Assembly (NCBI RefSeq): GCF_002945325.1
Contig: NZ_CP026606.1
Location: 1,050,001 to 1,082,000 of the forward strand
DNA: 32,000 bases
Source: Methanococcus maripaludis
Lineage (GTDB): Archaea > AGJL01 > Methanococci > Methanococcales > Methanococcaceae
Direction of reading: 5' to 3'
Shown: in pieces, positions 523 to 17,845 of the stretch
How the letters are laid out: each line of letters starts with the position of its first letter
How positions within the stretch are numbered: position 1 is the stretch's first letter
Translations under genes and position numbers: made by a program
The notes under the pieces: model-generated
What the model was told of the DNA's origin: nothing
Seen by the model: the letters and a program-made list of their open reading frames with translations, nothing else
The model's database searches: none

Positions 523-1389
523 ATGGCAGATAAAGTTAAGGTAGGCATTATACAACTCTGCGGATGCTCTGGATGCCATATATCACTACTTGATTTACAC
601 GAAGGCCTTTTGGACGTTCTTCCAGCTTTGGAAATTGTATACGCTCCAATCATTGCTGACGTAAAAGAAATTCCTGATGTTGACGTATTCTTAGTCGAAG
701 GCGGAGTAAGAAGCGAACACGATGAACACTTGATTCATGAAATCAGGGAAAAATCAAAAGTAGTGATTGCATGGGGATCCTGTGCAGCTTTCGGAGGTAT
801 TCCGGGACTTGGCAATATGTATACTCCAGAACAACTTAAAGAAACAGTTTATACGACAGTTTCAACAGATAACCCTGGAGTTATTCCAACTGAAGGAGTT
901 CCTGAACTAACTACTGAGGTAAGGGCTATTTCTGATGTAGTTAAAGCAGATTACGTAATTCCTGGATGTCCTCCAAAACCTGCACTAACCGCAGGGGCAA
1001 TTGTTGCATTATTGGAAGGAAAAGATCCAGTATTACCGACAAAAATTGTATGTGATGAATGTCCAAGAACAAAAGAGAATGTATTCCCTAAAGAGTTCAA
1101 GAGATCCTTTGAAGGAACTCCTGATCCAGAGAAATGTCTCTTTGAACAAGGATACACATGCATGGGTATGGCTACAAGAGCAGGCTGTGGTGCAATGTGT
1201 CCATCAGCAAATATGCCTTGTAGAGGATGCTACGGTAAAACTGATGAAACTTTGGATCAAGGGGCAGCAGCTGCAAACACTTATGCAAATGCAGGAGAAG
1301 CAGCGCTTGAAATCCCGGATAAGGTTGCAACACTAAACAGATTCACGTTACCTGTTGCTTTAGTATCCAAAAAAATCCAAAAAGAATAA
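523..1389 (+). CDS. vhuG: F420-non-reducing hydrogenase small subunit (VhuG)
   Basis: 288-aa ORF. It has the N-terminal CGCSGC motif, further Cys clusters (GSCAAFGG, PGCPP, C-terminal CxxC/CP motifs) typical of [NiFe] hydrogenase small subunits, and RBS-like AAGGTGA upstream. It lies between vhuD and vhuA. Confidence 0.92.
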   Translation: MADKVKVGIIQLCGCSGCHISLLDLHEGLLDVLPALEIVYAPIIADVKEIPDVDVFLVEGGVRSEHDEHLIHEIREKSKVVIAWGSCAAFGGIPGLGNMYTPEQLKETVYTTVSTDNPGVIPTEGVPELTTEVRAISDVVKADYVIPGCPPKPALTAGAIVALLEGKDPVLPTKIVCDECPRTKENVFPKEFKRSFEGTPDPEKCLFEQGYTCMGMATRAGCGAMCPSANMPCRGCYGKTDETLDQGAAAANTYANAGEAALEIPDKVATLNRFTLPVALVSKKIQKE

Positions 1390-1430
1390 ACAAATACTTT
1401 CAAAAAACATAATTTAAGGATGGTGACTCT

Positions 1431-2687
1431 ATGGGTAAGGTTACTATCGAACCTCTATCCCGTTTAGAAGGGCACGGTAAGGTTTCAATAACCTTAGATG
1501 ATGCGGGAAAACCAACAGATGTAAAATTACATATTACTGCCCTTAGAGGATTCGAACAGTTTGTTGTAGGACGACCTGCAGAGGAAGTACCAAGAATAGT
1601 ACCAAGAATTTGTGGAATTTGCCAGACTCCGCACCACTTGGCAAGTGTTAAAGCAGTAGATGCTGCATGGGGTGCAGAAGTACCAAGTGCAGCCGAAAAA
1701 TTAAGAGAATTAATGCATCTTGGAAACATGATGCATTCTCACGCATTGCACTTCTATTACTTGGCAGCTCCTGACTTTGTACTTGGTCCTGATTCAGATC
1801 CTGCAGCTAGAAACATTATTGGAGTTATTGGCGCAGCTCCTGAAGTTGCTAAAAAAGCAATTGCAATGAGACGAGTTGGTCAATCAATTGTTGAAACAAT
1901 TGGTGGTAGAGCAATTCACCCTGTTACAGGAGTTCCTGGTGGGGTATCCAAAGCATTGAGCGAAGAAAAAAGAGACGAATTATTAAAAGAAATTGACGAA
2001 ATGATCGCATATGGTCAAGACGGTATCGCTCTTATCAAATCACTCAATGAAAAATACATGGATGTTGTAAAATCACTCGGTGTAATTGATACCTGGTATT
2101 TAGGTATGGTAAAAGAAGGTAAACACAATTTCTACGGGGACACATTAAGATTCATGTCACCTGATGGAAAACAAACTACCGACTTTAAACCTTCAGAATA
2201 CTTAGATAACATCGGTGAACACGTTGTAGGACACAACTACGTTAAATATCCATACAACAAAAAAGTTGGATATCCTGACGGTCTCTACAGAGTGGGCCCA
2301 TTAGCAATGCTTAATGTATGTGATTCAATGCCTACGCCTCTTGCCGAAGAAGCTAGAAAAGATTTCGCAGACACTTTCGGAAAACCTGCAAACCAATCAT
2401 TAGCATACAATCATGCAAGATTGATAGAATTGCTCGCTTCATGCGAAAGAGTCAAAGAACTTTTAGAAGACTCAGAAATAACTTCAACAGACATTAAAGC
2501 AGAAGTTGAACCAAAAGCAGGAAATGGTGTTGGTGCGATTTACGCTCCAAGAGGTACTTTATTCCACAATTATGAAACAGATGATAAAGGAATTGTTGTT
2601 AAAGCAAACATGATTGTAGCTTCAACACACAACGTACCTACCATGGAAAAAGCTATCCAACAAGCTGCAGAAGTTGTCTTCAAATAA
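1431..2687 (+). CDS. vhuA: F420-non-reducing [NiFeSe] hydrogenase large subunit lacking the C-terminal Ni-ligand segment (VhuA)
   Basis: 418-aa ORF with the N-terminal RICGICQTPH Ni-binding motif (RxCGxCxxxH). It ends (…AAEVVFK) before the usual C-terminal DPCxxCxxH motif. That motif is supplied by the next small gene. Confidence 0.93.
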   Translation: MGKVTIEPLSRLEGHGKVSITLDDAGKPTDVKLHITALRGFEQFVVGRPAEEVPRIVPRICGICQTPHHLASVKAVDAAWGAEVPSAAEKLRELMHLGNMMHSHALHFYYLAAPDFVLGPDSDPAARNIIGVIGAAPEVAKKAIAMRRVGQSIVETIGGRAIHPVTGVPGGVSKALSEEKRDELLKEIDEMIAYGQDGIALIKSLNEKYMDVVKSLGVIDTWYLGMVKEGKHNFYGDTLRFMSPDGKQTTDFKPSEYLDNIGEHVVGHNYVKYPYNKKVGYPDGLYRVGPLAMLNVCDSMPTPLAEEARKDFADTFGKPANQSLAYNHARLIELLASCERVKELLEDSEITSTDIKAEVEPKAGNGVGAIYAPRGTLFHNYETDDKGIVVKANMIVASTHNVPTMEKAIQQAAEVVFK

Positions 2688-2702
2688 GCAACGGTGGTAA
2701 AG

Positions 2703-2837
2703 ATGGTAGATGAGGCAAAATTAAATTTAATCGAGATCGTGCTAAGAGCATACGATCCATGATATTCATGTGCAGCGCACATGATTGTAAAAGACGAACA
2801 AGGAAAAGTTCTCCTTGAAGTCAAAAAAGAAGAATAA
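2703..2837 (+). CDS. vhuU: Hydrogenase large-subunit C-terminal selenopeptide (VhuU), UGA-Sec at 2760-2762
   Basis: ATG 2703 is preceded by GGTGG. Translation: [44 protein letters not shown], ending at TAA 2835-2837. DPUxxCxxH is the Sec version of the C-terminal [NiFe] ligand motif. It is not in the ORF track because it is short and contains a TGA. Confidence 0.9.
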
Positions 2838-2840
2838 AAC

Positions 2841-2875
2841 TTCTCTAACCGAACCCTAAACGGGAGGCTAGGGAA
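2841..2875 (+). promoter_or_regulatory. Archaeal SECIS element downstream of vhuU
   Basis: The lower helix pairs 2841-2850 (UUCUCUAACC) with 2866-2875 (GGCUAGGGAA): 9 of 10 positions pair, with one A/C mismatch. The internal loop is GAA (2851-2853) opposite A2865. The upper helix is CCC (2854-2856)/GGG (2862-2864) with loop UAAAC. It starts 4 nt after the vhuU stop. Confidence 0.78.
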
Positions 2876-2926
2876 ACCTTCAATAGAAGGCCCCATACCT
2901 TTAAAAATTTTTTCGGGGGTTGTCAT

Positions 2927-4114
2927 TTGGCAGGAATATCTATTCAAGAGGATGCTTGCCTTGTGTGTAATGCCTGTGCGAAGGCATGCCCTACAGAGGC
3001 AATAGAGATTGCCCCCTTTAAGACATGTATTCAGTGCTTTAGTTGTGCTACTGCATGTCCGACAGGGGCATTAGTTGAAAAAGACGGAAAGTTAGTTTTC
3101 AATGGAAGCAAATGTGATTTGGACGGAGCATGTCAAAAAGCATGCCCTGTAGGAATCAAAAAAGTAGATGACAGATTCCCATACTCCAAAGGACACTGTG
3201 TTCTCTGTGAGAAATGTGTTGATATCTGCCCTGCTGAAATAATTTCACTTCCTGGAAAAGCCGAAAAGCCTAAAAAAGAAATAATCATTCCACAAGAACC
3301 AATTGCAGTTACAAAAGACTGTGTTGCTTGTGGCGTATGTGTTCCAGAGTGTCCGGTTGATGCAATATCCATCGAAGATATCGCAGTAATTGATACAGAC
3401 AAGTGTATATACTGTACTGTATGTTCACAAACTTGTCCATGGAACGCAATCTTTGTAGCTGGAAAACTGCCTCAAAAAAGACAGAAAACAATCAAATCTT
3501 TCACAGTTAATGAGGAAGAATGTATTGGTTGTGAGAAGTGTGTTGAAGCATGTCCTGGTTCAATGATTGAGTACAATGGTGAAGCTTTAGGTGTTAAATT
3601 ACCAGGGGCATGCCCTGCATGTGGACTCTGTGTAGAAAGCTGTCCAGTTGAAGTTATTAGCTTGGAAGTTGAATATGCAAGCGCAAAACCAGTTACTGAC
3701 GAAGGTCTAGTCTGGTCAGAAGAAAAATGTGCATACTGCGGACCTTGTGCAATCAAATGTCCAACAGGTGCAATAAAAGTAGTTAATCCGAAAGGATTAG
3801 AATTACCTTCAAAGAAAAAAACCGAAAAAGCAAACGAATTCGCAATGTGTATTCGATGTGGTGCCTGTGCAATGAAGTGTCCAACCGGCGCTTTAAAAAT
3901 GGGCAAAATGGTTCATGAAGGTAAAGAATACGCAAGAGTTGAATTTAGCCCTGCATTATGTAATGAATGCGGCGAATGTGTAGATGTATGTCCACAGAAA
4001 ACACTGGAACTCACCGGTGACGACAAAATGCCTCTTAAAGGTTACTGTGTAATGTGCTTGAAATGTATTGAAGCATGCAACAAAACCAAAAAAGAAGCAT
4101 TATCATTGAAATAA
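2927..4114 (+). CDS. vhuB: Polyferredoxin associated with the Vhu hydrogenase (VhuB)
   Basis: 395-aa ORF containing 12 CxxCxxCxxxCP-type [4Fe-4S] motifs. I counted 11 canonical motifs plus one [12 protein letters not shown] variant; the last motif ends in CN. An apparent TTG start at 2927 is preceded by GGGGGT. Its position after vhuU matches the vhu operon. Confidence 0.9.
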
Positions 4115-4143
4115 ACCATTCCCATTTTTTTTGGGTGATAAAA

Positions 4144-5448
4144 GTGGAAGTGTTTAAGAATGTCGTATGTCCATTCTGTGGGACTCTTTGCGATGATATT
4201 GAAGTTCTTGTAGAAAATAACCATGTAGTTGGGACTAGAAATGCATGCAGAATCGGAAATGCAAAATTTATGCACTTCGAGGGCGCTGTAAGACATGAAT
4301 CTCCTCTTATGAGGGAAAATAAGAAGGATGACTTTAAAAAGGTTGACTACGAGACTGCAACAGAAGAAACCGCAAGGTTACTCGTCGAAGCAAAGTTACC
4401 GCTCATTTACGGGTGGAGTTCTGCGGAATGCCATGCACAGCAATTAGGTGTATTATTGGCTGAAAAAACGAAAGCTATTGTGGATAACACCGCGAGTGTT
4501 TGACACGGGCCTTCACTTTTAGCTGTACAGGATGTAGGATACCCTGTTTCAACATTAGGAGAAACTAAAAACAGAGCAGACGTTGTCTTGTTCTGGGGTT
4601 CAAACCCAATGCATGCTCACCCAAGACACATGAGCAGGTACTCAGTATTCCCAAGAGGATTCTTTAGACAAAGAGGTAAACAGGACAGACAGATGATTGT
4701 GGTAGATCCGAGAAAAACGGATACTGCAAAACTCGCTGACATTCACCTCCAAGTGGAGCCTCATAAGGATTATGAGCTTGTAAGTGCTCTTAGAGCTGCA
4801 GCAAAAGGATTTAATATTGAAGCTGAACAGGTAGCTGGTGTTCCAACGGAAACCATCTACGAAGCAGTCGACATCTGTAAAAATGCCCAGTTCGGTTCAC
4901 TCTTCTTTGCGATGGGTGTAACAATGAGCAGGGGAAAACACAGAATTATTGACAATGCTATTCAGTTTGTAATTGACATGAATGCATATACTAAGTTTGT
5001 ATTGACTCCAATGAGGGGACACTACAACGTTAACGGATTCAATCAGGTTTCAACCTGGGTTACTGGATACCCCTACGGTGTAGACTTCTCAAGAGGGTAC
5101 CCAAGATACAATCCGGGAGAAACTGCTTCAAACGATGTATTGCAGAGAGGAGACACCGACATGATGATCAACGTTGCATCAGATGCAGGTGCACACTTCC
5201 CTCAAAAAGCAGTACAGCACATGGCAAAAATCCCGCTTGTATGTATCGATCCTCACGAAACTCCATCATCTGTAATTTCCAATATTGTACTTCCTCCAGC
5301 AATAACCGGACTTGAAGTTTCAGGAACTGCTTACAGAATGGACGGTGTTCCAATCGAACTAAGAAAAGTCATCAAAGCTCCTGAAGGAATGCTTTCCGAT
5401 GCAGAAATAATGAAAATGTTGATCAAAAAGGTCGACGAAATGAAATAA
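4144..5448 (+). CDS. fwuB: Formylmethanofuran dehydrogenase subunit B, selenocysteine form (UGA at 4501-4503)
   Basis: ORF-track pieces 4075-4503 and 4588-5448 are in the same frame, and the TGA at 4501 is the only stop between them. The read-through gives …[23 protein letters not shown]…[13 protein letters not shown]… The N-terminal [10 protein letters not shown] Fe-S motif and molybdopterin-oxidoreductase-like body fit FwdB/FmdB. The likely start is GTG 4144, after GGGTGA at 4133-4138. Sec is codon 120. Confidence 0.87.
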
Positions 5449-5657: not shown

Positions 5658-6326
5658 ATGGAAATTATACCAGTTATTGATTTAATGAATGGATTGGCAG
5701 TTTCTGGAAAAAGTGGAAATAGAAAAGAATATGTTCCAATAAAATCCGTATTATGTGATTCTTCAGATCCCCACGATGTAATTAAAAAATACAACGAAAA
5801 TGGGGCAAAAAAAGTATATATCGCAGATTTAAACTCGATAATGGGTACCGGAAACAATTTTGAAATTGTAAAAAGTCTCGATATTTTTAAAATTGTTGAT
5901 TTTGGAGTTACTGATAAAAAAGATTTAGAAAACGTCAAAAAATGTGTCAATATGACGATTCTTGGAACTGAAACTCTAAATGATATTTCGATTTTAAAAG
6001 AAGGAAATATTATTTTAAGCCTTGATTTTAAGGATGGAAAACTTTTAAATTATGATTTAGATGACATTTTAAGTAAAGTCGATAAAAAAACTCCGTTAAT
6101 AATACTGGATATCTCATCAGTTGGAACTCAAAAAGGAATTAACGTGGAATTAATAAAAGATATATTGAAAAAAACCGATAATCCAATATACATTGGTGGT
6201 GGAATTAAATCTGAGGATGACTTAAAAATTTCAAAGGAACTTGGAATTTCCGGAGTTTTGATTGGAACTACAATACACAATGGAAAACTCGATTTAAAAA
6301 AAATAATTCAAAAGTACGGGGAATAG
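5658..6326 (+). CDS. HisA/HisF-fold (beta/alpha barrel) family protein, function not assignable
   Basis: 222-aa ORF starting MEIIPVIDLMNGLAV…, with YIADLN, LILDISSVGT and IGGGI…SGVLIGT segments. These are typical of the HisA/HisF phosphate-binding barrel. Its stop lies 1 nt from the comE start. Confidence 0.65.
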   Translation: MEIIPVIDLMNGLAVSGKSGNRKEYVPIKSVLCDSSDPHDVIKKYNENGAKKVYIADLNSIMGTGNNFEIVKSLDIFKIVDFGVTDKKDLENVKKCVNMTILGTETLNDISILKEGNIILSLDFKDGKLLNYDLDDILSKVDKKTPLIILDISSVGTQKGINVELIKDILKKTDNPIYIGGGIKSEDDLKISKELGISGVLIGTTIHNGKLDLKKIIQKYGE

Positions 6327-6327
6327 T

Positions 6328-6885
6328 ATGGAACTTACAAGATATGAAATTATTAAAATTTTAATGGAATACGTGACCGATGAAATAGTTGTTTGTAACA
6401 TCGGAATTCCAAGTAAAGAACTCTTTAAAATTAACGATAGGGAAAAAAACTTCTACATGTTAGGATCGATGGGTCTGTCATCATCCATCGGACATGGATT
6501 AGCACTTTCTGTAAATGAAAAGGTAATTGCAATTGATGGAGATGGTTCTGTATTGATGAACATGGGCTCTCTTGCAACAATTGGAAAAACAGCTCCAAAA
6601 GACTTTTTATTATTAATTGTTGACAACTGCGCTTATGGATCAACTGGAAATCAGGAAACTCATTCAACATGTACTGATTTATACCAAGTTTCAAAAGCAT
6701 GCGGAATAGATTCAATTGGCGTATTTAATGAAGAACAGCTTAGAGAGGCAGTTAAACTTGTATTAACTGAATCTGGTACAAAAGTAATTATTGCAAAAGC
6801 AAGACCGCACAATGAAAACGTTCCAAACATAAACTTGGTTCCAACTGAAATAAAACACAGATTTATGAATTCGATAAAAAAATAA
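6328..6885 (+). CDS. comE: Sulfopyruvate decarboxylase beta subunit (coenzyme M biosynthesis), TPP-binding
   Basis: 185-aa ORF. It contains NIGIPSKELF…DREKNFYMLGSMGLSSSIG and the TPP motif IDGDGSVLMNMGSL…VDNCAYGSTGNQ. I recall this closely resembling the methanococcal ComE sequence. Confidence 0.78.
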   Translation: MELTRYEIIKILMEYVTDEIVVCNIGIPSKELFKINDREKNFYMLGSMGLSSSIGHGLALSVNEKVIAIDGDGSVLMNMGSLATIGKTAPKDFLLLIVDNCAYGSTGNQETHSTCTDLYQVSKACGIDSIGVFNEEQLREAVKLVLTESGTKVIIAKARPHNENVPNINLVPTEIKHRFMNSIKK

Positions 6886-6897
6886 TAAATAAAAAAG

Positions 6898-7590
6898 TTA
6901 TTTTCCCAAAAATTTATTTTTAAAGTTTAAAATATTTTCATAATCCTGATTTATTGGATATCCGACAATAATATGGTCTTTAAATTTATTTAAATCTTCA
7001 TTTTTCAAGTCTTCAAGTGAAATTATGAAATCCTGCCAGTTTCCGTGATAATTTTCACGTCTTCCAAGGTAGTTTTTCATGGAATCCAATATATTTTCAT
7101 CCATTTTTTCAACATATGGTATGTAAACTGCTTTTTTAGACGAAATATCTGGATTTTCACAGCCGTAAACATAGTAAGAAATTAAATCGTTTTTTTCGAT
7201 AAAATCCTGTACCAGATTTTCAACACCTTCGGTTCCAACCCAGATTTTATTTTCGTAAGTTATTGCTTTTTCTAAAATATCTAAAATCCTTGTTTTTTGG
7301 AAATTAGATTCTTTTTTTGAAAGATAAGCCTTATTTCCTAAAACAACGCAGATATCAAAGTCATATGACGCATATTTTTCTAAAAGTTCAAAAGAATCGT
7401 TTCTTTTACTTTGAACAGTTAAAACTGCTTTTTTCAAACTTTCAAGAATACTTTCATCTAGCAAAGTAGTTTCAGCATCTATAACGTGGTAATCAAAAGA
7501 TTTTGAAACATTTTTATTTATTTCAAGCAATATGTCATAATCATAATTGATTTTAGTCAATTTTGTTGCAATTGCAAGCATTTTTTTCAC
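6898..7590 (-). CDS. Hypothetical soluble protein (230 aa), last gene of the cbf5-ferredoxin operon
   Basis: Long ORF with coding-like composition. Its start lies 2 nt after the ferredoxin stop. I recognise no motif. Confidence 0.6.
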   Translation of the reverse strand: MKKMLAIATKLTKINYDYDILLEINKNVSKSFDYHVIDAETTLLDESILESLKKAVLTVQSKRNDSFELLEKYASYDFDICVVLGNKAYLSKKESNFQKTRILDILEKAITYENKIWVGTEGVENLVQDFIEKNDLISYYVYGCENPDISSKKAVYIPYVEKMDENILDSMKNYLGRRENYHGNWQDFIISLEDLKNEDLNKFKDHIIVGYPINQDYENILNFKNKFLGK

Positions 7591-7592
7591 GT

Positions 7593-7808
7593 TTATTCTT
7601 CAGTTTCAACGGTAATTGCCTGATCTGGACACTCTAATATGCAGAGCTGGCAGTTTGTGCATTCTTTTGGATTTACTGGGTTTGGCGGGTAAATTCCTTT
7701 TTTATTTAGTGTTTCGGACTTTTTGTAAACGTCTTTTGGACACACTTCTATGCAGATGTCGCAGCCTTTACAGTAATTTTCGTCAATTATGATCTTCATA
7801 ATATTCAC
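7593..7808 (-). CDS. 2x[4Fe-4S] dicluster ferredoxin (71 aa)
   Basis: Two motifs, CKGCDICIEVCP and CTNCQLCILECP. Size and layout resemble the small delta-type ferredoxin subunits of 2-oxoacid:ferredoxin oxidoreductases. Confidence 0.85.
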   Translation of the reverse strand: MNIMKIIIDENYCKGCDICIEVCPKDVYKKSETLNKKGIYPPNPVNPKECTNCQLCILECPDQAITVETEE

Positions 7809-7814
7809 CGCTAA

Positions 7815-8816
7815 TTATTTCTTCTTTGATTCCGGTTTATTTTTATTATTTTTATTTCTTTTTTTCCAGATTCTTGGATAAATTCCTGGCTCCATTATAA
7901 CACGCGTTATTTCTACAACTTCGCCTTCTTCAGTTTTTAACATATCTTTTGTATTCATGAGCGGTTTTCCAACTGCAACAGCTTCTCCTTTCAGTGTTTC
8001 GATTAAAACAATTTCATCAGTTCCAATTCCTTTTTCAATTTTTGAAACTCCTGAAGAATAAAGTGTAGCTCCATGGCATACTGCATCAACCGCGCTATCC
8101 TTTACAATTATTTTTTTAAGGTGTTGTAGCCCATATTCAAGGGGTTTTACTAATTTTCTTAATTCTTCTTCGTTTCCGTCTTCCTTCCAGAATATATATG
8201 CATCAAGTAAATCCTGCAAATAAACAGCTTCATTTTCGTAAAATGGTCCGCTAATAGTTCTTCTAAGCTCTTGCATGTGTGCAGAAGTTCCAAGAGCTTC
8301 ACCCATATCATCTACGAGTTTTCTTAAATATGTTCCGGATTGACATTTCGTTCTAAATAAAATATCTCGCCCATCAATTTCTAAAATCTCAATTTCGTAT
8401 ATTTTTCTAATTCTAAGGCTTCTTTTAACCGCTGCTTTTAAAGGAGGCCTTTGGTGAATTCTTCCAGTAAATTCTTTAAAAATTTTTTCAATATCTGAAA
8501 ACTTAGCATCATCATGAAGATGCATTAAACATACGTATTCTTTTGGCGGGATGTGCCAGATCGGAACGCATTTTGTCGTGTTTCCTAATGCCACGGGAAG
8601 TGCTCCTGTAACTTTTGGGTCAAGTGTTCCGCCGTGTCCTGCTTTAACTAAATTTAGCATGTTTCTAACCCATGCGGCAACTTCGTGGGAAGTTGGACCA
8701 GACGGCTTATCAATTACAACGAGCCCAGTATTTAGAAGTGTTTTTATGTCTCTATTGTATGGGTCTGATCCGTAATTATAATCTGTTTTTGATTCTTCTT
8801 TTACAATTAATTCCAA
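7815..8816 (-). CDS. cbf5: tRNA/rRNA pseudouridine synthase Cbf5 (TruB family) with PUA domain
   Basis: 333-aa ORF with VVIDKPSGPTSHEV and the catalytic-Asp motif GHGGTLDPKVTG. The C-terminal PUA-like region contains KKIIVKDSAVDAVCHGA. It ends in a Lys/Asn-rich tail. Confidence 0.9.
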   Translation of the reverse strand: MELIVKEESKTDYNYGSDPYNRDIKTLLNTGLVVIDKPSGPTSHEVAAWVRNMLNLVKAGHGGTLDPKVTGALPVALGNTTKCVPIWHIPPKEYVCLMHLHDDAKFSDIEKIFKEFTGRIHQRPPLKAAVKRSLRIRKIYEIEILEIDGRDILFRTKCQSGTYLRKLVDDMGEALGTSAHMQELRRTISGPFYENEAVYLQDLLDAYIFWKEDGNEEELRKLVKPLEYGLQHLKKIIVKDSAVDAVCHGATLYSSGVSKIEKGIGTDEIVLIETLKGEAVAVGKPLMNTKDMLKTEEGEVVEITRVIMEPGIYPRIWKKRNKNNKNKPESKKK

Positions 8817-8833
8817 AGTCTCACCTTAAAGGC

Positions 8834-9031
8834 TCATTTTCGTTTTTTATTTTTCATAAACTGTTTTTGGTGTTTTTTCATAAATCTGTAGAGCCTGAAT
8901 GCAGTTACAATAATTCCTGTAAAAAATCCAATTAATACAAAGCAGTTGTTACTATATGCATTCTTAAGTATATAACCTATTATAATTCCAAAAGTTATCG
9001 GGAGGACTATTTCAAAAGCAAGATCGATCAT
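8834..9031 (-). CDS. Small 2-TM membrane protein with basic C-terminal tail (65 aa), hypothetical
   Basis: Two hydrophobic segments (FEIVLPITFGIIIGYIL and FVLIGFFTGIIVTAF) are followed by KKHQKQFMKNKKRK. The gene lies 17 nt upstream of cbf5 on the same strand. No clear RBS. Confidence 0.5.
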   Translation of the reverse strand: MIDLAFEIVLPITFGIIIGYILKNAYSNNCFVLIGFFTGIIVTAFRLYRFMKKHQKQFMKNKKRK

Positions 9032-9146
9032 ATTTTCAAATGTTTATTTCATAATCATAAAACTCGTAATCAAAGAAAACTTACTCAAAAATAAATTTAA
9101 CAGTAAACTATATATATTTCTTTTTTTATTCTTATAATGTGCAATA

Positions 9147-9310
9147 GGGAGTATGGTGTAGTCTGGTCTATCATCGGGGACTCCAAGTGCCTATATGGCC
9201 TTCTTAGAAATCTAAGAATTTTTAAGGCGCACAAACACAAGTTTGTTGCGTGGACTAAAGCCCGATGCAGGAGAAATCCCTGGACCTGGGTTCAAATCCC
9301 AGTACTTCCA
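9147..9310 (+). tRNA. tRNA-Trp (anticodon CCA at 9183-9185) interrupted by an 89-nt intron
   Basis: Cloverleaf folded by hand. Acceptor stem: GGGAGTA/TACTTCC, with one G-U pair. D arm has A14, G18G19 and A21. Anticodon stem: GGGGA (9176-9180)/TCCCT (9277-9281). Anticodon loop: CU-CCA-A…A. T arm: CTGGG-TTCAAAT-CCCAG. Discriminator is A9310. No encoded CCA, and an oligo-T run follows. The mature length is 75 nt. A TATA-like CTATATATAT lies at 9108-9117. Confidence 0.9.
9187..9275 (+). other. tRNA-Trp intron at the canonical 37/38 position with bulge-helix-bulge splice motif
   Basis: A central 4-bp helix, CUCC (9181-9184)/GGAG (9270-9273), is flanked by 3-nt bulges AAG (9185-9187) and AAA (9274-9276). 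The outer helix is UGC (9188-9190)/GCA (9267-9269). The intron also contains two internal hairpins: TTCTTAG-AAAT-CTAAGAA and CGCACAAAC-ACAA-GTTTGTTGCG. Confidence 0.8.
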
Positions 9311-9446
9311 CTTTTTTTCTTTTAAAAATATTATTCCACCGTATCGGTAACTATATACGCTTTTATGCCCAAACTTAAATGAATAAATATATATATTCTG
9401 TAAAAGATATGAATTAATGAACTTATAACACTGTTCAGGTGGTTAC

Positions 9447-9677
9447 ATGAAATTTTTAGAAAAACTAACATCAAAAAAAGGTCAGGTATCAATGGAAATT
9501 GGTATCCTCGTTGCAGCAGCAGTTGCAGTTGCAGCAATCGCAGCATACTTCTACGCAACAAACGTTAAAAATGCGCAAGCAGATACTGGAGCATCAGCTG
9601 CATCAACAACAGGTAATTTAACAAATATTGCAGATAGTGCAACATCGGGAATTTCATCTATTACGCTGACTGCGTAA
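9447..9677 (+). CDS. Type IV pilin-like protein with class III signal peptide (76 aa), paralog of the pilin at 11520
   Basis: The N-terminus is MKFLEKLTSKKG|QVSMEIGILVAAAVAVAAIAAYFY: a short basic leader, a KG|Q cleavage context and a hydrophobic helix. The C-terminal part is Ser/Thr/Ala-rich with one N-x-T sequon (NLT). RBS AGGTGG is at 9436-9441, and a TATA-like AAATATATATATT at about 9385-9397. Confidence 0.8.
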   Translation: MKFLEKLTSKKGQVSMEIGILVAAAVAVAAIAAYFYATNVKNAQADTGASAASTTGNLTNIADSATSGISSITLTA

Positions 9678-9705
9678 TTTCTTTTCTATTATTTTTGGTG
9701 ATTTT

Positions 9706-11487
9706 TTGGATTTATTTTATTTTTTGATAGTTCTAATTTTGATATACTTGATAAATCCTTTAAAAAATGACGAAAAATTGATGACAACTCCTTTTTTATC
9801 AATTTCTTATATTATAATTTCATCTTATTTTATGTCAGTTTTCGGCGTATCGTTAATCAAAATTTACTATATTATCCCGTTAATTTTTTTAACGATTTTC
9901 AATTTTAAAAAAATTTCTTTTAAAAATGTAAAGTTAAATAAAATTTCAGTTTTGTTTGTAATATTAATTTCATTACTCGCAGTTTTTGAAGGATATATAA
10001 TATTTCCCGAAAACCCGTTAAATAAAACAGATACTCAATACCACAGTTATAAATCACAGGCAATAATCGAAGAAAAAAGTTTATTTTATACAACATCTGA
10101 AATCCCATACGTAAATTACGTTAAATATCCTTCAGGATTTCATTCTTTAGTTTATTTCATTTCAAATCAGGTAAATGACATTCCAGATGCATTTAATTTT
10201 TTAATGTACTTTATGCTGGTTTCAATGGTTATTGGGTTTTATTTGGTTGGAGAATCAATAAAATCAGGACTTGGATATTTTACAGCACCTTTTGTACTGG
10301 CAGGAAGTGTTTTTTATGGAATAATTTACGTACTCTATCCAAATTATCTCGCTTATTCCTTATTTTTAATCTCTGTATTTTTCTTAATTAAATACTCAAA
10401 ATCAAGGGATACTAATTATCTCTATCTTTTTTCTTTAGTTTTATTTGCAATGATTTATACACACCCGTTTCCTGTTTTAATGTTGATTTTATTTATTTTA
10501 TCAATCACGATATTCGAAATATCAAATAAAAATTATAACGTAATAAAAAATTATTTTATATTTTCAGTTATTCCCGCAGTAGCTTCATTACTATTAATTT
10601 CAAAAAGAATGTCAAAAGATATAGTTTCATACAGCAAATCGTCAAATCTGCTTTCAGAACCTGTTAATATAATTATTCATAACATTTTCGCAGGATTTGG
10701 AATATTTTACCTGTTTATGAAACATCCTGTGTATGCCGTTACACTCGATAACGGAGTTACATTTTTAATTTCACTATTCTTTACTTATCTCTTCATAATT
10801 GGACTTTATGGCATATTTAAACATAAAATGTATTATCTAATACTGTTTCCTATATTGTTACTCTTTATTTTGATTAACAGTGAATCTATCCATCTTAGCA
10901 TACCATTTTTTAATACCATGTATGCATCAAACAGGATGATGTACAATATTCAAATAATAATGCCGATATTTTATGGTTTCGGAGTTTATTCGATCATAAA
11001 CACTCTTAAAAAAAGAACATTTAAATTAGGTTTTATTTTCTTAACTTCGTTTGTTATTTTTTCTTCAGCATGCATGAATTATCAAATAATTCCTGATTAT
11101 TTAAAAGAGCAGTATGTAGTTTCTGAAGCTGATTTGAATGCTTTTGAATGGATTAACTTAAATAATATTTCAAATGAAACGTTTTTAAATTTTGGGGAAG
11201 ATGCAGGACAATTTTTACCAATATATACATCTAATAAACCTGTTTTTTATTACTCAAAATTTTCAAGCGGAGATTTTTCAATAGGAAATAATACAATATA
11301 TGAACTTGCAAAATTTATTGATGGCAATGATCAGTATAACTACACGAAAGTATGTAAAATGAATAATATTAAGTATATTTACGTTTCAGGAGTACTTGGT
11401 GAATTATGTAGTGACTTCTTCAAAGATATGGCTTATTTTAAAATACTATATGGAGAAGACAACGTATATATTGTTGAAGTTATATAA
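9706..11487 (+). CDS. Large polytopic membrane protein (593 aa, more than 10 predicted TM segments, about 130-aa C-terminal soluble domain), function unknown
   Basis: An uninterrupted 1.8-kb ORF that is extremely hydrophobic through about residue 460, followed by a polar C-terminal domain (QIIPDYLKEQYVVSEADLNAFEWINL…). An apparent TTG start at 9706 lies 5 nt after GGTG (9697-9700). An alternative ATG is at 9781. Confidence 0.72.
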   Translation: MDLFYFLIVLILIYLINPLKNDEKLMTTPFLSISYIIISSYFMSVFGVSLIKIYYIIPLIFLTIFNFKKISFKNVKLNKISVLFVILISLLAVFEGYIIFPENPLNKTDTQYHSYKSQAIIEEKSLFYTTSEIPYVNYVKYPSGFHSLVYFISNQVNDIPDAFNFLMYFMLVSMVIGFYLVGESIKSGLGYFTAPFVLAGSVFYGIIYVLYPNYLAYSLFLISVFFLIKYSKSRDTNYLYLFSLVLFAMIYTHPFPVLMLILFILSITIFEISNKNYNVIKNYFIFSVIPAVASLLLISKRMSKDIVSYSKSSNLLSEPVNIIIHNIFAGFGIFYLFMKHPVYAVTLDNGVTFLISLFFTYLFIIGLYGIFKHKMYYLILFPILLLFILINSESIHLSIPFFNTMYASNRMMYNIQIIMPIFYGFGVYSIINTLKKRTFKLGFIFLTSFVIFSSACMNYQIIPDYLKEQYVVSEADLNAFEWINLNNISNETFLNFGEDAGQFLPIYTSNKPVFYYSKFSSGDFSIGNNTIYELAKFIDGNDQYNYTKVCKMNNIKYIYVSGVLGELCSDFFKDMAYFKILYGEDNVYIVEVI

Positions 11488-11519
11488 CTATTTAAAGAAC
11501 TGGATGTGGACGTGGTGCT

Positions 11520-11741
11520 ATGAAATTTTTAGAAAAAATAACATCAAAAAAAGGTCAAATAGCAATGGAACTCGGAATACTGGTTATGGCGGCAGTTGCA
11601 GTTGCAGCAATCGCAGCATACTTTTATGCAACGAATGTTAGCAATACTGGAAAACAGATTACAAATTCGACAAACCAGACAACTCAGGCACTCGCTGATG
11701 CAATATCTGATGCTACATCAGAACTGTCTAGCTACGCATAA
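11520..11741 (+). CDS. epdE: Short type IV pilin-like glycoprotein (73 aa), resembles the major pilin of Methanococcus maripaludis
   Basis: Begins MKFLEKITSKKG|QIAMELGILVMAAVAVAAIAAYFYATNVSNTGKQITNSTNQTTQ… It has a KKG|Q class III signal peptide, a 61-aa predicted mature protein and three N-x-S/T sequons (NVS, NST, NQT). RBS GGTG lies just upstream. The symbol is assigned from memory of the MMP1685-type pilin and has not been verified. Confidence 0.8.
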   Translation: MKFLEKITSKKGQIAMELGILVMAAVAVAAIAAYFYATNVSNTGKQITNSTNQTTQALADAISDATSELSSYA

Positions 11742-11752
11742 GATGTGACTTT

Positions 11753-12436
11753 ATGAGGCTTATAGGATTAACAGATTTACATAACCGCATAATTAATTTT
11801 GATAAACTTTTAAGGTACAAACCTGATGTTATTTTAATTTCTGGAGATTTTACAAAATGTAGCTTTGCTAAATCAGAGGATCAGGATGATTTATACGATA
11901 TTGTCTATGACGTAGATACAAAACTTATCGATTTTTTAGAAAATTTAAACAACAAAATAAAAGTGTTTATAATCCCTGGAAACTGGGAAAATTTGAATAC
12001 AATACAAAAAATGAATGAATCCGGGTTAAATATCGATGAAAAACTTGTTAAATTTTACGATACAATTTTTATTGGATTGGGGGGTTCAAATGAGACTCCA
12101 ATTTGTAGTCCAAACGAATATTCAGAAGATGAAATTTACGAAAGATTTATCAAAATTTTAAAAAATGAAAAAATAGATGTTAAAAATAATTTTATTTTAC
12201 TCTCACACGTTCCGCCAAAATATACAATGGCTGACAGGTGTGAAGCAGGACACGTTGGAAGTAGCGCAGTTAGAAAAATTATTGAAGAATTTAAACCAGT
12301 TTTATGCGCATGCGGACATGTTCATGAAAGTAGGAGTATTGATAAAATCGGAAATACCTTGATTGTAAACCCATCTTCAACTGGATTTTTTATATATGAT
12401 ACGAAAACTAAAAATTTAGAGATACATGATTTATAA
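11753..12436 (+). CDS. Calcineurin-like metallophosphoesterase
   Basis: 227-aa ORF with the motifs LTDLH, SGDFT, GNWEN, LLSHVPP and GHVHE, in the canonical order for the metallophosphoesterase fold. Confidence 0.8.
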   Translation: MRLIGLTDLHNRIINFDKLLRYKPDVILISGDFTKCSFAKSEDQDDLYDIVYDVDTKLIDFLENLNNKIKVFIIPGNWENLNTIQKMNESGLNIDEKLVKFYDTIFIGLGGSNETPICSPNEYSEDEIYERFIKILKNEKIDVKNNFILLSHVPPKYTMADRCEAGHVGSSAVRKIIEEFKPVLCACGHVHESRSIDKIGNTLIVNPSSTGFFIYDTKTKNLEIHDL

Positions 12437-13078
12437 TTATCTTAAACGTCTTTTTTTCAAAGAAACTCTACTTGAAGCCTTCTTTTTTATAAATGATCTC
12501 ATATCTAAGTAGTAAAATAAAATAAACAGGTATGGGAGTAATATTTCAGGATAGTAATCAATTTCAATTATATTTAATAGTATTAATCCCACCATTAAAG
12601 TTAGATACAGTATAATATACAGTTCAAATGCCCAGTAACGAACAATACTGCTTCCAACAAGCGCAAATGAAGTAATTAACATGATAAATGCAATATAAAA
12701 CATGCTTAAGTATCCTAATGGTATAATATATAATAAAAACACGAATAGCAATGCTGAATAAAATAAAATGATTGCAATATAATATTCAAGTCCAAATTCC
12801 TGAAGCCCTTGAAAACTTGATGCATCGATACTTAATGAATTATCAAAATATGCTCTTGAAATTTCAAATACTACCATGGTAGCTATTGAAAACCCGATAA
12901 CTGGAATAATACTGTGTATACTCAACGTTTTTAACGTTATTTCCGAAAGTACGTATGTATTAATTGTACACATCAAAACTAAAATCAGATAGTATCCAGT
13001 CATAGACTTTGATATTTTTGTGAATACATAACCTATTATACCGGAAATTAACACAAGAAGTAGTATCTGATAATCCAT
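12437..13078 (-). CDS. Hypothetical integral membrane protein (213 aa, about 6 TM, basic C-terminal tail)
   Basis: A continuous ORF made of repeated hydrophobic segments, ending KKKASSRVSLKKRRLR. It abuts the convergent metallophosphoesterase gene with zero gap. Confidence 0.62.
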   Translation of the reverse strand: MDYQILLLVLISGIIGYVFTKISKSMTGYYLILVLMCTINTYVLSEITLKTLSIHSIIPVIGFSIATMVVFEISRAYFDNSLSIDASSFQGLQEFGLEYYIAIILFYSALLFVFLLYIIPLGYLSMFYIAFIMLITSFALVGSSIVRYWAFELYIILYLTLMVGLILLNIIEIDYYPEILLPYLFILFYYLDMRSFIKKKASSRVSLKKRRLR

Positions 13079-14662: not shown

Positions 14663-15949
14663 ATGTTTAATGAAGACACAAAATTTGCATCCCCTTATGA
14701 AATAAAAGTTTTAAACGAATTAACTGGAAAAAATTTTCAGGAAGATGATTTAATCCTTTTAGAAAAGCTTTCTGGAATGGATTACAGAAAAAGAGTTTAC
14801 GTTTCAGAAGATCAGATTGGAACACTCGAATTTGATTTACTGGATTTAACGTGGAAATTTATTCCATCTCCTCTTTACTATATGATTGAAGACCCAAAAA
14901 TCTCCTTAAAATATACTAAAAAAAGGCTTAAAGGAAAATACATTAAAGAAGAGCTTTTGGAAAACCCTGAAGAATTAAATGAAGCATTAAAAGATGATTT
15001 TGAATATATCGGGGTAAAAATTGGGGATTTTTTAGGAGTTGGGGTTAGAAAAGAAGATCGGGTAAAAGTAAAAGATCTTTCAAGGAAAAAAGAGCTAGAT
15101 TTTCAAAAAATTGCAGATTATTTAGAGTATAATAAAGAATACCTTGATGAAATGGTTGAAAATTCAATAGAAATCCTTCAAGATGCTGTTGAAAAATACA
15201 AAAGAAAAGGATACGCGATAAACGCATCTTTTAGTGGCGGAAAGGACAGTGCAGTATGCACACTTATTTCAAAAGAAGTTATTCCTGATTTAGATGTAGT
15301 ATTTATCGATACAGGCTTAGAATATCCTGAAACCCTAAATTATGTGAAAGATTTTGTAGATAAATATGATATCAATCTTGATACTGTAGATGGGGATAAT
15401 TTCTGGGACAATCTTGAAAAAGAAGGCATTCCAACAAAAGACAATCGATGGTGCAACAGTGCCTGTAAATTAATGCCTCTAAAAAGATACTTAAAAAAGA
15501 AGTACGGAAACAGAAAAGTTCTTACAATTGATGGTTCCAGAAAATACGAGAGTTTCACCCGTGCAAATTTGGATTACGAAAGAAAAAGCGGATTTATCGA
15601 TTTCCAGACAAATGTCTTCCCAATTCTTGACTGGAATTCGATTGATATCTGGAGCTACATATTTTCAAAAGATATTATATATAATCCAATGTATGATAAA
15701 GGATTTGAAAGAATCGGCTGTTATTTATGCCCTTCAGCATTAAACAGTGAATTTTTAAGGGTAAAAGAACTTTATCCTGACTACTTTGAAAGATGGGTTA
15801 AATATCTTAAGAAATATTTCCCAGAAAGCGAAGTATTAAGGGGATTTTGGAGATGGGATGAACTTCCTCCAAAAATGATAGAACTCGAAGAAAATATGGG
15901 TGTAGATATCGAAAAAAAGAAAAGATTAAAAAGAATTACTCAACTGTAA
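14663..15949 (+). CDS. PAPS reductase family / PP-loop ATP pyrophosphatase protein with about 190-aa N-terminal extension
   Basis: PP-loop SFSGGKDS motif. Four Cys are arranged WCNSAC … GCYLCP, possibly ligating an Fe-S cluster. The start is trimmed from TTG 14648 to ATG 14663, which follows AGGT. Confidence 0.78.
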   Translation: MFNEDTKFASPYEIKVLNELTGKNFQEDDLILLEKLSGMDYRKRVYVSEDQIGTLEFDLLDLTWKFIPSPLYYMIEDPKISLKYTKKRLKGKYIKEELLENPEELNEALKDDFEYIGVKIGDFLGVGVRKEDRVKVKDLSRKKELDFQKIADYLEYNKEYLDEMVENSIEILQDAVEKYKRKGYAINASFSGGKDSAVCTLISKEVIPDLDVVFIDTGLEYPETLNYVKDFVDKYDINLDTVDGDNFWDNLEKEGIPTKDNRWCNSACKLMPLKRYLKKKYGNRKVLTIDGSRKYESFTRANLDYERKSGFIDFQTNVFPILDWNSIDIWSYIFSKDIIYNPMYDKGFERIGCYLCPSALNSEFLRVKELYPDYFERWVKYLKKYFPESEVLRGFWRWDELPPKMIELEENMGVDIEKKKRLKRITQL

Positions 15950-17735
15950 CACTTTTTGCAAGCCCTCGAGGCTTATCCACATCTCTTTTTAAATCAACAG
16001 CTTTGTAATATGCTAAAAGCTGACAAGCAGTAGCATAGACAAAAGGACTTACCTCTTCAATTACATCAGGAACTTTTATTGAATATTTTAAATTATCTTC
16101 AACGGGTGAAATTCCGATGATTTTGCCGTTTCTTGCTTTTATTTCTTCAACATTTGAAAGAACGGGACTTAAAAGCTCGGATTTTGATGGAGGAATTAGT
16201 GCAACAGTGTCCATATTTTCATCAATCAAAGAAATAGTCCCGTGTTTTAAAAATCCGCTGCTCATCCCTTCTGCATGCAAATATGTTATTTCTTTAAATT
16301 TCAAAGCTCCTTCAAGGGCATTTGCAAGATTAATTCCTTTTGAAATAAAGAGGTAGTTTTTAGCAGTCAATTCTTCTGCAATTTTTGAAATGTTTTCTTT
16401 TTCGTCCAAAACTTTTGAAACGTAATTTGGAATATTTAATAACTCTTTTTCAAAAATATCCATGTTTTTTCCAATTATTTTACCGTACTCAATGAATAAC
16501 CTGTATAAAATAACAAGCTGTGACATGAAGGTTTTTGTTGCACAAACTGCAATTTCTAGGCCGGATCCCATCATTATTGTAATGTCTGCTTCTCTTGTTG
16601 CAGTACTTCCAAGAACGTTTACGATAGTTGCAGTTTTTGCACCTTTTTCTTTAGCGTATTTAACTGCTTTCATCGTGTCGTATGTTTCACCACTTTGAGT
16701 TATTGCAATAACCAGTGTTTTTTCATCAACAATTCCTTTTGTTAAAAATTCAGACGAATCGATTGGAATAACTAATTTATTTAATCCTGAGAACCAGTAT
16801 TCTGCAACCATTGCAGCATGAAGTGAAGTTCCCATTGCAGTGATGTATATTTTATCACATTTTTCAATTTCTTTTCCAAGATTTTCAATTTCCAATTTTG
16901 AAATTTTCATTGAATTTTTTAAAATTACTGGTTCTTCCATAATTTCTTTTAACATGAAGTGCTCATATCCTTCCTTTTCAGCACTTTCCATATCCCACTG
17001 GAGTTCAATTTTATCTCTTTGAACTTGTTTTCCATCGTTTAAAACTTCGATATCTATTTTATCGTTTTCTTTTCTCAAAATTACGATATCACGATCGTTT
17101 AAGGGCATTGCAAGTTTAGTATATTCTAAAAATGCAGAAATATCGCTTCCAATAAAACATTCATCTTTTTTTATTCCTAAAATTAGTGGACTTTCATTCC
17201 TAACTCCAACAAGCATTTCTGGAAAATCCTGATTTAAAATTAAGAGAGCGTACGTTCCATTAAGTTTTTTAATTGTATTTTGAATGGCGTTAATATATGT
17301 TTTTTCAGTTATTTCTTTAAAATCTTTTAGTTCTTCTTCAATCAAGTGTGGAATAACTTCAGTATCGGTTTCAGATTTGAAAATGTGGCCTTTTGAAATT
17401 AATAGTTCCTTTAATTCCTTGTAATTTGATATGATTCCATTGTGTGCAATACATATTTTTTCTATGCAGTCGTAGTGCGGGTGTGCATTATCTTTTGTAA
17501 TTCCGCCGTGTGTTGCCCACCTGCTGTGCCCAATTCCAATAAAGCCGTTCATGTCATCAAAATTTTCTTTTTTTGAGACTTCTAAAACTTTTCCAGTATT
17601 TTTCTTAAGTTTAATTGTATCATCAATAGTTGCAATTCCGCAGCTATCGTATCCCCTATATTCTAGCCTTTTTAAACCATTTAGTAGTATTTTTGAAGCC
17701 CGTTCATTTCCGATATATCCAATAATTCCGCACAT
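15936..17735 (-). CDS. glmS: Glutamine--fructose-6-phosphate aminotransferase (isomerizing)
   Basis: Has the N-terminal MCGIIGY (Ntn amidotransferase catalytic Cys2) and HSRWATHG. Two SIS domains are present, with a C-terminal …KPRGLAKSVTVE. The start is trimmed from GTG 17744 to ATG 17735 so that Cys is residue 2. Confidence 0.95.
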   Translation of the reverse strand: MCGIIGYIGNERASKILLNGLKRLEYRGYDSCGIATIDDTIKLKKNTGKVLEVSKKENFDDMNGFIGIGHSRWATHGGITKDNAHPHYDCIEKICIAHNGIISNYKELKELLISKGHIFKSETDTEVIPHLIEEELKDFKEITEKTYINAIQNTIKKLNGTYALLILNQDFPEMLVGVRNESPLILGIKKDECFIGSDISAFLEYTKLAMPLNDRDIVILRKENDKIDIEVLNDGKQVQRDKIELQWDMESAEKEGYEHFMLKEIMEEPVILKNSMKISKLEIENLGKEIEKCDKIYITAMGTSLHAAMVAEYWFSGLNKLVIPIDSSEFLTKGIVDEKTLVIAITQSGETYDTMKAVKYAKEKGAKTATIVNVLGSTATREADITIMMGSGLEIAVCATKTFMSQLVILYRLFIEYGKIIGKNMDIFEKELLNIPNYVSKVLDEKENISKIAEELTAKNYLFISKGINLANALEGALKFKEITYLHAEGMSSGFLKHGTISLIDENMDTVALIPPSKSELLSPVLSNVEEIKARNGKIIGISPVEDNLKYSIKVPDVIEEVSPFVYATACQLLAYYKAVDLKRDVDKPRGLAKSVTVE

Positions 17736-17845
17736 ATAAAACACCTAAATTTTCGACTGAAAGCTATTTGACATTGTTTATATAATATAATTTCGATTAT
17801 TATAGTTAGTACTATTTATTCAGTCTTATTATCGGTGATTTATTT

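Follow-up and report, generated by a model that had tools for sequence, protein, structure and literature searches.

In Pseudomonas aeruginosa group IV, the gene immediately downstream of the pilin gene pilA encodes TfpW, a pilin arabinosyltransferase that O-glycosylates Ser/Thr residues of the pilin from a polyprenyl-phosphate sugar and depends on an acidic motif in its external loop 1 (bioRxiv 10.1101/2020.04.19.049825). In the archaeon Methanococcus maripaludis, the glycan of the major pilin EpdE is the archaellin tetrasaccharide with an unidentified hexose branching from the linking GalNAc, and the transferase for this hexose is unknown (PMC4187195, PMC4390842), a question that was still open in 2024 (PMC11407970). 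N-glycosylation of EpdE in strain S2 requires AglB, which is encoded by a separate gene (PMC4390842). In Haloferax volcanii, the outward-facing Dol-P-mannose mannosyltransferase AglS adds the final sugar after AglB has acted, using its own dolichyl-phosphate carrier, so that a lipid-linked sugar is joined to a protein-bound N-glycan (PMC11407970). The machinery of archaeal protein O-glycosylation is still unidentified (PMC8241124, PMC11607397). Here we analyzed a 32,000-nucleotide (nt) stretch of the M. maripaludis chromosome (NZ_CP026606.1, positions 1,050,001 to 1,082,000, forward strand; hereafter the window), in which a gene for a membrane protein of 593 amino acids (aa) stands between two small pilin genes. 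The original prediction, made from the sequence of the window, had correctly described the extra pilin hexose and its missing enzyme, as the papers cited above bear out, and had put forward the 593-aa protein as a candidate supplier of that hexose. We lean towards the view that the gene encodes an outward-facing glycosyltransferase of the GT-C fold, a member of the DUF6541 family, that is functionally tied to the adjoining small EpdE-type pilins, and we find that the branching hexose is not its product.

The 593-aa protein resembles TfpW as a polytopic GT-C membrane protein with a large external C-terminal domain whose gene lies immediately beside that of the major pilin. TfpW belongs to a variable pilin cassette found in some strains of the species only, and the DUF6541 gene shows both this pilin adjacency and this strain variability. 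The two proteins differ in that they have no detectable sequence relationship and come from a bacterial and an archaeal host, respectively, and TfpW has 11 predicted transmembrane (TM) helices and a TPR C-terminal domain, whereas the DUF6541 protein spans the membrane 14 times and ends in a 131-aa alpha/beta domain that gave no TPR match. By analogy, with activity and acceptor of the DUF6541 protein both predicted, TfpW is the closest functional counterpart. The PMT, PMT_2, ArnT and DPY19 enzymes, which pass a single sugar from a polyprenyl-phosphate carrier onto a lipid or the side chain of a protein, are alike in belonging to GT-C, and a PMT_2 paralog gene adjoins the DUF6541 gene in Thermococcales; the DUF6541 proteins differ in carrying a D-x3-H motif in place of DE.

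Organization of the cassette and its two pilins

An open reading frame (ORF) scan places three co-directional ORFs in the cassette, and its two pilin genes begin with a direct repeat that includes the ribosome-binding site (RBS):

9447-9677, plus strand: pilin 1, 76 aa, EpdE-type class III signal-peptide protein, MKFLEKLTSKKG followed after the cleavage site by QVSMEIG; PF04021, 35.4 bits
9706-11487, plus strand: large ORF, predicted DUF6541 GT-C-fold membrane protein, 593 aa, MMJJ_11460
11520-11741, plus strand: pilin 2, EpdE (MMP1685) ortholog by primer match and gene order, 73 aa, MKFLEKITSKKG followed after the cleavage site by QIAMELG; PF04021, 36.8 bits
9432-9572, plus strand: direct repeat copy 1, RBS and first ~125 nt of pilin 1; 141 nt, 82% identity to copy 2
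11505-11645, plus strand: direct repeat copy 2, RBS and first ~125 nt of pilin 2; copies spaced 2073 nt

The spacers are 28 nt (9678-9705, between pilin 1 and the large ORF) and 32 nt (11488-11519, between the large ORF and pilin 2), and every feature of the cassette described in the original prediction is found in place. The start codon of the large ORF is TTG with GGTGA ahead of it, and the N-terminus MDLFYF is kept in homologs. The large protein is identical to a M. maripaludis entry and agrees with MMJJ_11460 of strain JJ in 581 of 582 residues, the lone difference arising from the choice of start codon. Both pilins exceed the gathering score of PF04021 (class III signal peptide), which is 23.7. 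Both have the KKG-Q cleavage motif and obey the class III rule of Gln +1 and Glu +5 (PMC3875500), followed by a hydrophobic N-terminal helix as in EpdE-type (arCOG06620-like) pilins. The two proteins are 63% identical. Pilin 2 has three sequons (NVS, NST and NQT), pilin 1 has one (NLT), and the tail of pilin 1 is rich in Ser and Thr.

Which of the two pilins corresponds to EpdE was settled from gene order and a published primer. Counting genes from flaB1, which we take to be MMP1666 in S2 numbering, makes the metallophosphoesterase MMP1684 and pilin 2 MMP1685, consistent with S2 accession CAF31240 (metallophosphoesterase). The mutagenic primer for mmp1685, GGTCAAATAG[C>G]AATGGAACTCGG, which turns Ala +3 into Gly (PMC4390842, Table 2), fits QIAMELG of pilin 2 and not QVSMEIG of pilin 1. 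On the primer match and the gene order, pilin 2 rather than pilin 1 is the ortholog of EpdE/MMP1685, the major pilin of S2, in line with the earlier proposal that the downstream pilin with three sequons is of the major type. We had suspected pilin 1 to be MMP1685 since korD is MMP1687 (PMC4418687). This was ruled out, as the S2 locus has Cbf5 alone in between; with korD as MMP1687, Cbf5 alone therefore remains as MMP1686, which fits a single-pilin locus in S2.

Pilin 2 is identical to the JJ protein AVB76534.1 and the downstream metallophosphoesterase to JJ AVB76535. The exact sequence of pilin 1 had no match in a collection of 15 billion proteins, though the neighbouring JJ proteins are there, and the gene therefore seems to be unannotated in the JJ records. 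Orthologs of pilin 1 are present in loci L006 and L008. In L006, a M. maripaludis locus with HNP86 locus tags, pilin 2 (7815-8039) is a mosaic of a pilin-1-like mature N-terminus, QISLEMGILVAA, and an EpdE-like C-terminus, which suggests gene conversion between the two pilin paralogs.

Fold, topology and conserved residues of the 593-aa protein

The 593-aa protein belongs to Pfam DUF6541 (PF20176), with 41.1 bits against a cut-off of 29 (E-value, E, of 9.9e-11) over residues 83-436, and the same family is assigned to all 21 homologs with precomputed Pfam hits. Its UniRef name is 'Glycosyltransferase RgtA/B/C/D-like domain-containing'. NCBIfam gave no match, and a profile search of PDB sequences returned no meaningful relative, with NDH subunit 4L (E 0.054) as its top entry. 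Members of the family are few: among 1.84 billion representatives, searched exhaustively with HMMER, 147 matched at E <= 1e-3 and 9 at E <= 1e-30. Close relatives come from Methanococcales only, and the next tier consists of DUF6541 proteins of ~700-760 aa, of which the two checked named ones are from Thermococcus and Pyrococcus. In one Methanococci metagenome-assembled genome (MAG) the homolog is split into two ORFs (L005 5992-7852; ORFs 5992-6201 and 6209-7852), by a frameshift or pseudogene formation or by an assembly error.

An AlphaFold (AF2) model built with 17 homologs had a predicted local distance difference test (pLDDT) score of 84.4 and a predicted template modelling (pTM) score of 0.88. 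Its 14 TM helices and external C-terminal alpha/beta domain (463-593, 131 aa) agree with the more than ten TM segments and roughly 130-aa terminal domain first described. In a Foldseek search against the PDB, all 11 matches at E <= 0.001 were GT-C enzymes (STT3, PglB and ALG12), with yeast and human STT3 at E ~1e-7. Weaker matches to ArnT, ALG9, AftD, Pmt4 and AftB came next at probability 0.98-1.00, and unrelated transporters appeared at probability <= 0.25 only. On the model, the 593-aa protein has the GT-C fold, as had been suspected from its general architecture.

The topology follows from charge distribution. Lys and Arg number 14 in the 37 residues of the loops assigned to the cytoplasm and 10 in the 140 residues of the short external loops, and the positive-inside rule places loop 100-155, the first large external loop, outside. 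In the model topology every conserved polar residue and the C-terminal domain lie on the external side. In an alignment of 20 sequences that span both tiers and share 16-24% identity with the query, D109, located in loop 100-155, is the sole invariant residue besides Met1; H113, Y141-P-x-G-x-H146, H253 and D499-x-G501 are conserved in at least 90%. D109 thus supplies the acidic residue that GT-C enzymes are expected to keep in their first large external loop, and a catalytic role is predicted for it. Taken together, the model and the alignment indicate a GT-C-fold protein that is probably an enzyme with its active site facing outward.

The best full-length structural matches were to the GT66 enzymes STT3, PglB and AglB (E 1e-7 to 1e-5, TM-score about 0.45-0.5). 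The DUF6541 protein shares with them an external globular C-terminal domain behind the final TM segment and an Asp in external loop 1, where oligosaccharyltransferases (OSTs) have their catalytic Asp. It differs in its low identity to them (~12-16%) and in three extra N-terminal TM helices ahead of the catalytic loop. Its single Trp (W481) leaves no WWDYG motif, and the STT3 Pfam model did not match even at E <= 1; the protein is therefore not an AglB paralog or a copy of STT3, as had been stated from the start. The PMT and PMT_2 Pfam models likewise gave no match at E <= 1, and one DUF6541 member of the Thermococcales branch showed a weak PMT_2 match (22.3 bits, below the cut-off of 26.1). 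When modelled alone, the C-terminal domain reached a pLDDT of 73, and its fold matches were non-significant (E 0.07-0.2); the top seven of these were external domains of DPY19 and of Archaeoglobus fulgidus AglB, which are protein-modifying GT-C enzymes.

Linkage of DUF6541 genes to small pilin genes

The three-gene arrangement of the window recurs, with its chromosomal surroundings, in Methanococcus vannielii and in a further strain of M. maripaludis, and therefore reflects more than chance. Small class III pilin genes lie ~0.1-4 kilobases (kb) from the DUF6541 gene in 20 of 28 loci of Methanococcales and Thermococcales, so that the linkage, for which a synteny check had been advised, is conserved well beyond Methanococcus. 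Of the eight loci with no pilin nearby, four are cut at the contig end beside the gene, three are from Methanocaldococcus, and one (L019) is a fragment at a contig edge. Given that just 14 class III proteins are predicted for the 1.66 Mb of S2 (PMC3875500), the linkage is far above chance. Four arrangements were distinguished:

Arrangement 1, two or three EpdE-type pilin genes in tandem and upstream: Methanothermococcus MAGs, M. aeolicus and M. okinawensis
Arrangement 2, pilins bracketing the DUF6541 gene: M. maripaludis and M. vannielii
Arrangement 3, pilins convergent and directly downstream: T. barophilus, L021-L024 and L029
Arrangement 4, pilins convergent and beyond a PMT_2 paralog: P. 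horikoshii, possibly also L027 and L028

The named genomes were reached by exact protein look-up, and a contig scan with narrow peptide patterns gave five loci. The metagenomes were scanned with an alignment of the Thermococcales branch (A6), which gave 12 loci; a broader alignment (A5) had no stretch conserved enough. Within these twelve further loci a scan with a pilin hidden Markov model (HMM) showed that L021-L024 and L029 carry small class III ORFs directly downstream and that L026-L028 carry them 2-4 kb off. T. barophilus has a 60-aa class III gene that adjoins a PMT_2-DUF6541 gene pair and converges on it, and in P. horikoshii two small class III genes come after the DUF6541-PMT_2 pair. 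An adjacency that outlasts four gene arrangements in two orders is more persuasive than the count itself. A census of archaeal type IV pilus loci mentions no association with glycosyltransferases (PMC4858521), and the tie of DUF6541 to Epd-type pilins has not been described previously.

The DUF6541 genes of Thermococcales are paired beside the pilins with one or two GT-C genes of the PMT_2 family (L017 2753-5026; L018 7094-9103; L019 5476-9944). This suggests that DUF6541 and PMT_2 form a two-enzyme pilin modification module in this order.

Loss of the DUF6541 gene within M. maripaludis

The DUF6541 gene is present in JJ and in HNP86-type strains and absent at the locus in S2, KA1 and OS7. On the S2 chromosome (BX950229, L012) the locus consists of a 65-aa gene, a tRNA gene, one 74-aa pilin gene and the metallophosphoesterase gene. 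It aligns with the window in two blocks, L012 6118-6877 with 8801-9567 and L012 6757-7748 with 11520-12500, and these overlap by exactly the 121-nt 5' segment that the pilin genes share. The S2 pilin gene thus joins the upstream region of pilin 1 to the coding sequence of pilin 2, with the crossover in the identical stretch that encodes the signal peptide. M. vannielii holds the complete cassette in this context, so the cassette is the ancestral condition, and S2 lost it when the two pilin repeats recombined.

A third allele was found in KA1 (L033 3753-4219) and OS7 (L032 3746-4219), which have two tandem pilins with no DUF6541 gene between them. Here the RBS and start region of the DUF6541 gene are fused to pilin 2 (MFKKLTSKKGQIAMELG), giving the N-terminus MFKKLTSKKGQ; this is a second deletion, independent of that in S2. 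The DUF6541 gene has therefore been lost at least twice within M. maripaludis, through deletions involving the flanking pilin genes. No protein of S2, C5, C6 or C7 turned up as a homolog, either in two database searches or in those lists of cluster members that were read.

Strain JJ is constitutively competent for natural transformation, which depends on pili, and S2 is not unless pilins are overexpressed (PMC10133366). The cassette is present in the competent JJ and absent in S2, a correlation only, and no transformation-defective insertion falls in the cassette.

Predicted donor and acceptor

In Methanocaldococcus, the DUF6541 gene adjoins a gene for a 238-aa GT2 protein. This GT2 protein is most similar, though never above the curated cut-offs, to the polyprenyl-phosphate sugar synthases AglJ, ArnC, a dolichyl-phosphate-hexose transferase model and PpgS. 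Genes for a GT9 protein, a flippase-like protein and a further large membrane protein are close by. This context favours a lipid-phosphate monosaccharide as the donor. The large membrane protein, polytopic and of ~605 aa, is conserved in the Methanocaldococcus glycosylation clusters beside the GT2, GT9 and flippase-like genes (L016 7558-9381, L002 8934-10748 and L005 8574-10391, all on the minus strand) and matched no Pfam or NCBIfam family. A kinship between it and DUF6541 was considered and rejected, as hhalign showed no relationship (probability 1.5%).

With regard to the acceptor, the N-X-S/T sequon is missing in 11 of 14 pilins of the Thermococcales branch, that of T. barophilus being devoid of Asn, and the tails of all 14 are rich in Ser and Thr. 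If pilins are the substrate family-wide, these sequon-less pilins would therefore call for an O-glycosidic linkage, at least in the Thermococcales branch.

Proposed function and alternatives

From the fold, the topology, the conserved external residues, the pilin linkage and the presence/absence polymorphism, and by analogy with TfpW, the best reading is that of a dispensable, strain-variable glycosyltransferase that would act on pilins as the predicted acceptor from a lipid-phosphate sugar as the predicted donor, possibly by O-linkage. A cytoplasmic GT2-type synthase would load dolichyl phosphate with a monosaccharide, the lipid-linked sugar would be flipped to the outer face of the membrane, and the DUF6541 enzyme would then move it onto the pilin. 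The residues likely to serve in this last step are the Asp109/His113 loop, the YPxGxH146 motif, His253 and Arg410 at the outer membrane surface, and the D499-x-G loop of the C-terminal domain. The acceptor would most plausibly be the Ser/Thr-rich tail of pilin 1 and/or EpdE, either membrane-anchored or during assembly. The enzyme would be an accessory one, unneeded for pilus assembly and not the one that adds the branching hexose in S2.

Several observations weigh against this proposal. The 28 loci are not phylogenetically independent. The relationship to the PMT_2 neighbours is weak: hhalign of DUF6541 against four neighbouring PMT_2 proteins gave E 0.004 and a probability of 8.5% over 149 columns, although this alignment does set TD109TQYH on the PMT_2 loop-1 motif FDYDEGTY. 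In Methanocaldococcus the gene is not beside pilins, so the acceptor could be broader, and the pilins of M. aeolicus directly follow a gene for an S-layer protein. A transposon screen for pilus-dependent transformation in JJ hit many epd genes and recovered no insertion in MMJJ_1145x-1147x (PMC10133366), leaving the 1.8-kb DUF6541 gene unhit, so this pilus function probably does not require the enzyme. A literature search on DUF6541, MMP1684 and MMP1686 found nothing relevant. Methanococcus pilins have not been reported to carry an O-glycan, which says little either way, as the sole strain examined, S2, has no DUF6541 gene.

Two alternatives retain some weight, and we consider both unlikely. 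The protein could be a second, pilin-dedicated OST that does not rely on AglB and moves a ready-made glycan in one piece from a dolichol carrier onto Asn, Ser or Thr of the pilin. The closest solved structures to the full-length model are indeed STT3 and PglB, A. fulgidus AglB domains are among the matches of the C-terminal domain, and the nearly invariant D499-x-G loop lies ~30 residues past the last TM helix, which we take to be roughly the position of WWDYG in OSTs. Moreover, TfpW has itself been described as a glycosyltransferase and oligosaccharyltransferase (bioRxiv 10.1101/2020.04.19.049825). Set against this are the missing WWDYG motif and STT3 match described above, the non-significance of the C-terminal-domain matches, and the Methanocaldococcus context, which points to a synthase for a monosaccharide-phosphate lipid.

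The protein could also, with a similarly low probability, be a general cell-envelope glycosyltransferase for the S-layer, other secreted proteins or a glycolipid, placed near pilins through co-expression of surface components. The pilin-free glycosylation cluster of Methanocaldococcus and the S-layer gene 5' of the M. aeolicus pilins are in its favour, as are the Thermococcales pilins, which are convergent and thus not co-transcribed with the DUF6541 gene. The persistence of small-pilin adjacency through four rearrangements in two orders, however, is hard to explain without a functional tie, and in M. maripaludis the gene sits between two pilins.

The role first proposed for the protein, that of an outward, AglS-like hexosyltransferase that attaches the branching hexose to the linking GalNAc once the tetrasaccharide has been delivered by AglB, is very improbable. 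It drew on the GT-C fold with its external conserved residues, on the position of the gene between pilins, on the still unassigned hexose transferase (PMC4187195, PMC11407970) and on the precedent in Hfx. volcanii. The pilin pentasaccharide was determined, however, on pili of MM900, a derivative of S2 (PMC3875500), and the S2 locus has no DUF6541 gene, nor did an S2 homolog appear in the searches described above. The gene cannot be the pilin hexose transferase because S2, where the sugar was measured, does not have it; this absence from S2 largely refutes the assignment, and the analogy with AglS fails for that sugar. Furthermore, the lack of sequons in most pilins beside the Thermococcales-branch homologs indicates that an N-glycan is not the general acceptor of the family. 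The broader idea of a pilus-dedicated modification or assembly module stands in part: the GT-C fold, the external Asp and the pilin linkage support it, and the hexose role has fallen away. Its other form, a non-enzymatic anchor, chaperone or assembly platform that retains a GT-C-like fold, could cite the location between pilin genes and the fact that activity is a prediction, but is hardly credible, since S2 is piliated without the gene (PMC3875500), which therefore is not an assembly factor, KA1 and OS7 also do without it, it went unhit in the JJ transformation screen, and an invariant Asp clustered with His, Arg and Asp on the external face is typical of an active site and not of a scaffold.

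Expression signals and neighbouring genes

Three putative expression signals accompany the cassette:

9387-9397, plus strand: TATA-box-like element ATATATATATT, ~50 nt 5' of the pilin 1 start; putative archaeal promoter
9660-9695, plus strand: hairpin over the pilin 1 stop codon, then a T-rich tract; terminator-like site 9660-9678, tail TTCTTTTCTA
11464-11472, plus strand: second TATA-like element GTATATATT, in the last DUF6541 codons, 48 nt 5' of the pilin 2 start

The TATATAT core of the first element is invariant in all seven aligned pilin upstream regions, and in S2 the pilin-1-type upstream region with its TATA-like element stands directly 5' of the sole epdE gene. The second element has the same spacing and core as that at pilin 1 and is kept in M. 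vannielii and HNP86. It is possibly a separate promoter for epdE, although its conservation may instead stem from coding constraint on the residues NVYIVEVI. The hairpin, which precedes the large gene, could act as an attenuator or a partial terminator. Strong transcription of the pilin, limited read-through into the enzyme gene and a promoter of its own for epdE would be a plausible arrangement. A sigma-70 promoter scan stayed at background (26 sites against 24.5 expected) and, being a bacterial model, is irrelevant to an archaeon; from that scan the hairpin and T-tract output alone was used.

An intron-containing tRNA gene (9147-9310, plus strand; Rfam RF00005, 37.8 bits) lies just 5' of pilin 1 and was missed by ARAGORN, which reported zero tRNAs in the window. 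A complete archaellum (fla/arl) operon (20032-29065, minus strand) with three archaellin genes (26931-29065) lies ~8 kb from the cassette, and glmS (15936-17744, minus strand) stands between the two. A hydrogenase cluster (523-5448, plus strand) comprises the small and large subunits of a NiFe(Se) hydrogenase, a 395-aa polyferredoxin and a molybdopterin-oxidoreductase-like ORF, and explains why G+C is raised in the first 5 kb.

Biological significance

The 593-aa gene encodes a new, uncharacterised member of the GT-C superfamily that is polymorphic among strains of M. maripaludis. A tempting assignment is corrected: the gene is not the missing pilin hexosyltransferase. The standard laboratory strains differ at the major pilin locus, where JJ has two pilins and the enzyme gene and S2 has one pilin, and this difference, together with the apparently unannotated pilin 1, matters when work on pili and natural transformation is interpreted.

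Archaeal N-glycosylation is well mapped and the enzymes of protein O-glycosylation are not (PMC8241124, PMC11607397), and DUF6541 offers a concrete candidate family. Some of the adjoining pilins cannot be N-glycosylated. The candidate is genetically testable, in JJ with the gene and in the equally tractable S2 without it. We put forward, as a tentative proposal, that DUF6541 proteins and their PMT_2 neighbours in Thermococcales may be archaeal protein O-glycosyltransferases dedicated to Epd pilins, which would transfer a hexose from dolichyl phosphate to the Ser/Thr tail, and that the M. maripaludis gene may be a variable surface-modification cassette. If this is true, the cassette would have been gained or lost repeatedly in M. 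maripaludis through recombination between the flanking pilins, and it may alter pilus adhesion, DNA uptake or virus susceptibility between the laboratory strains JJ and S2.

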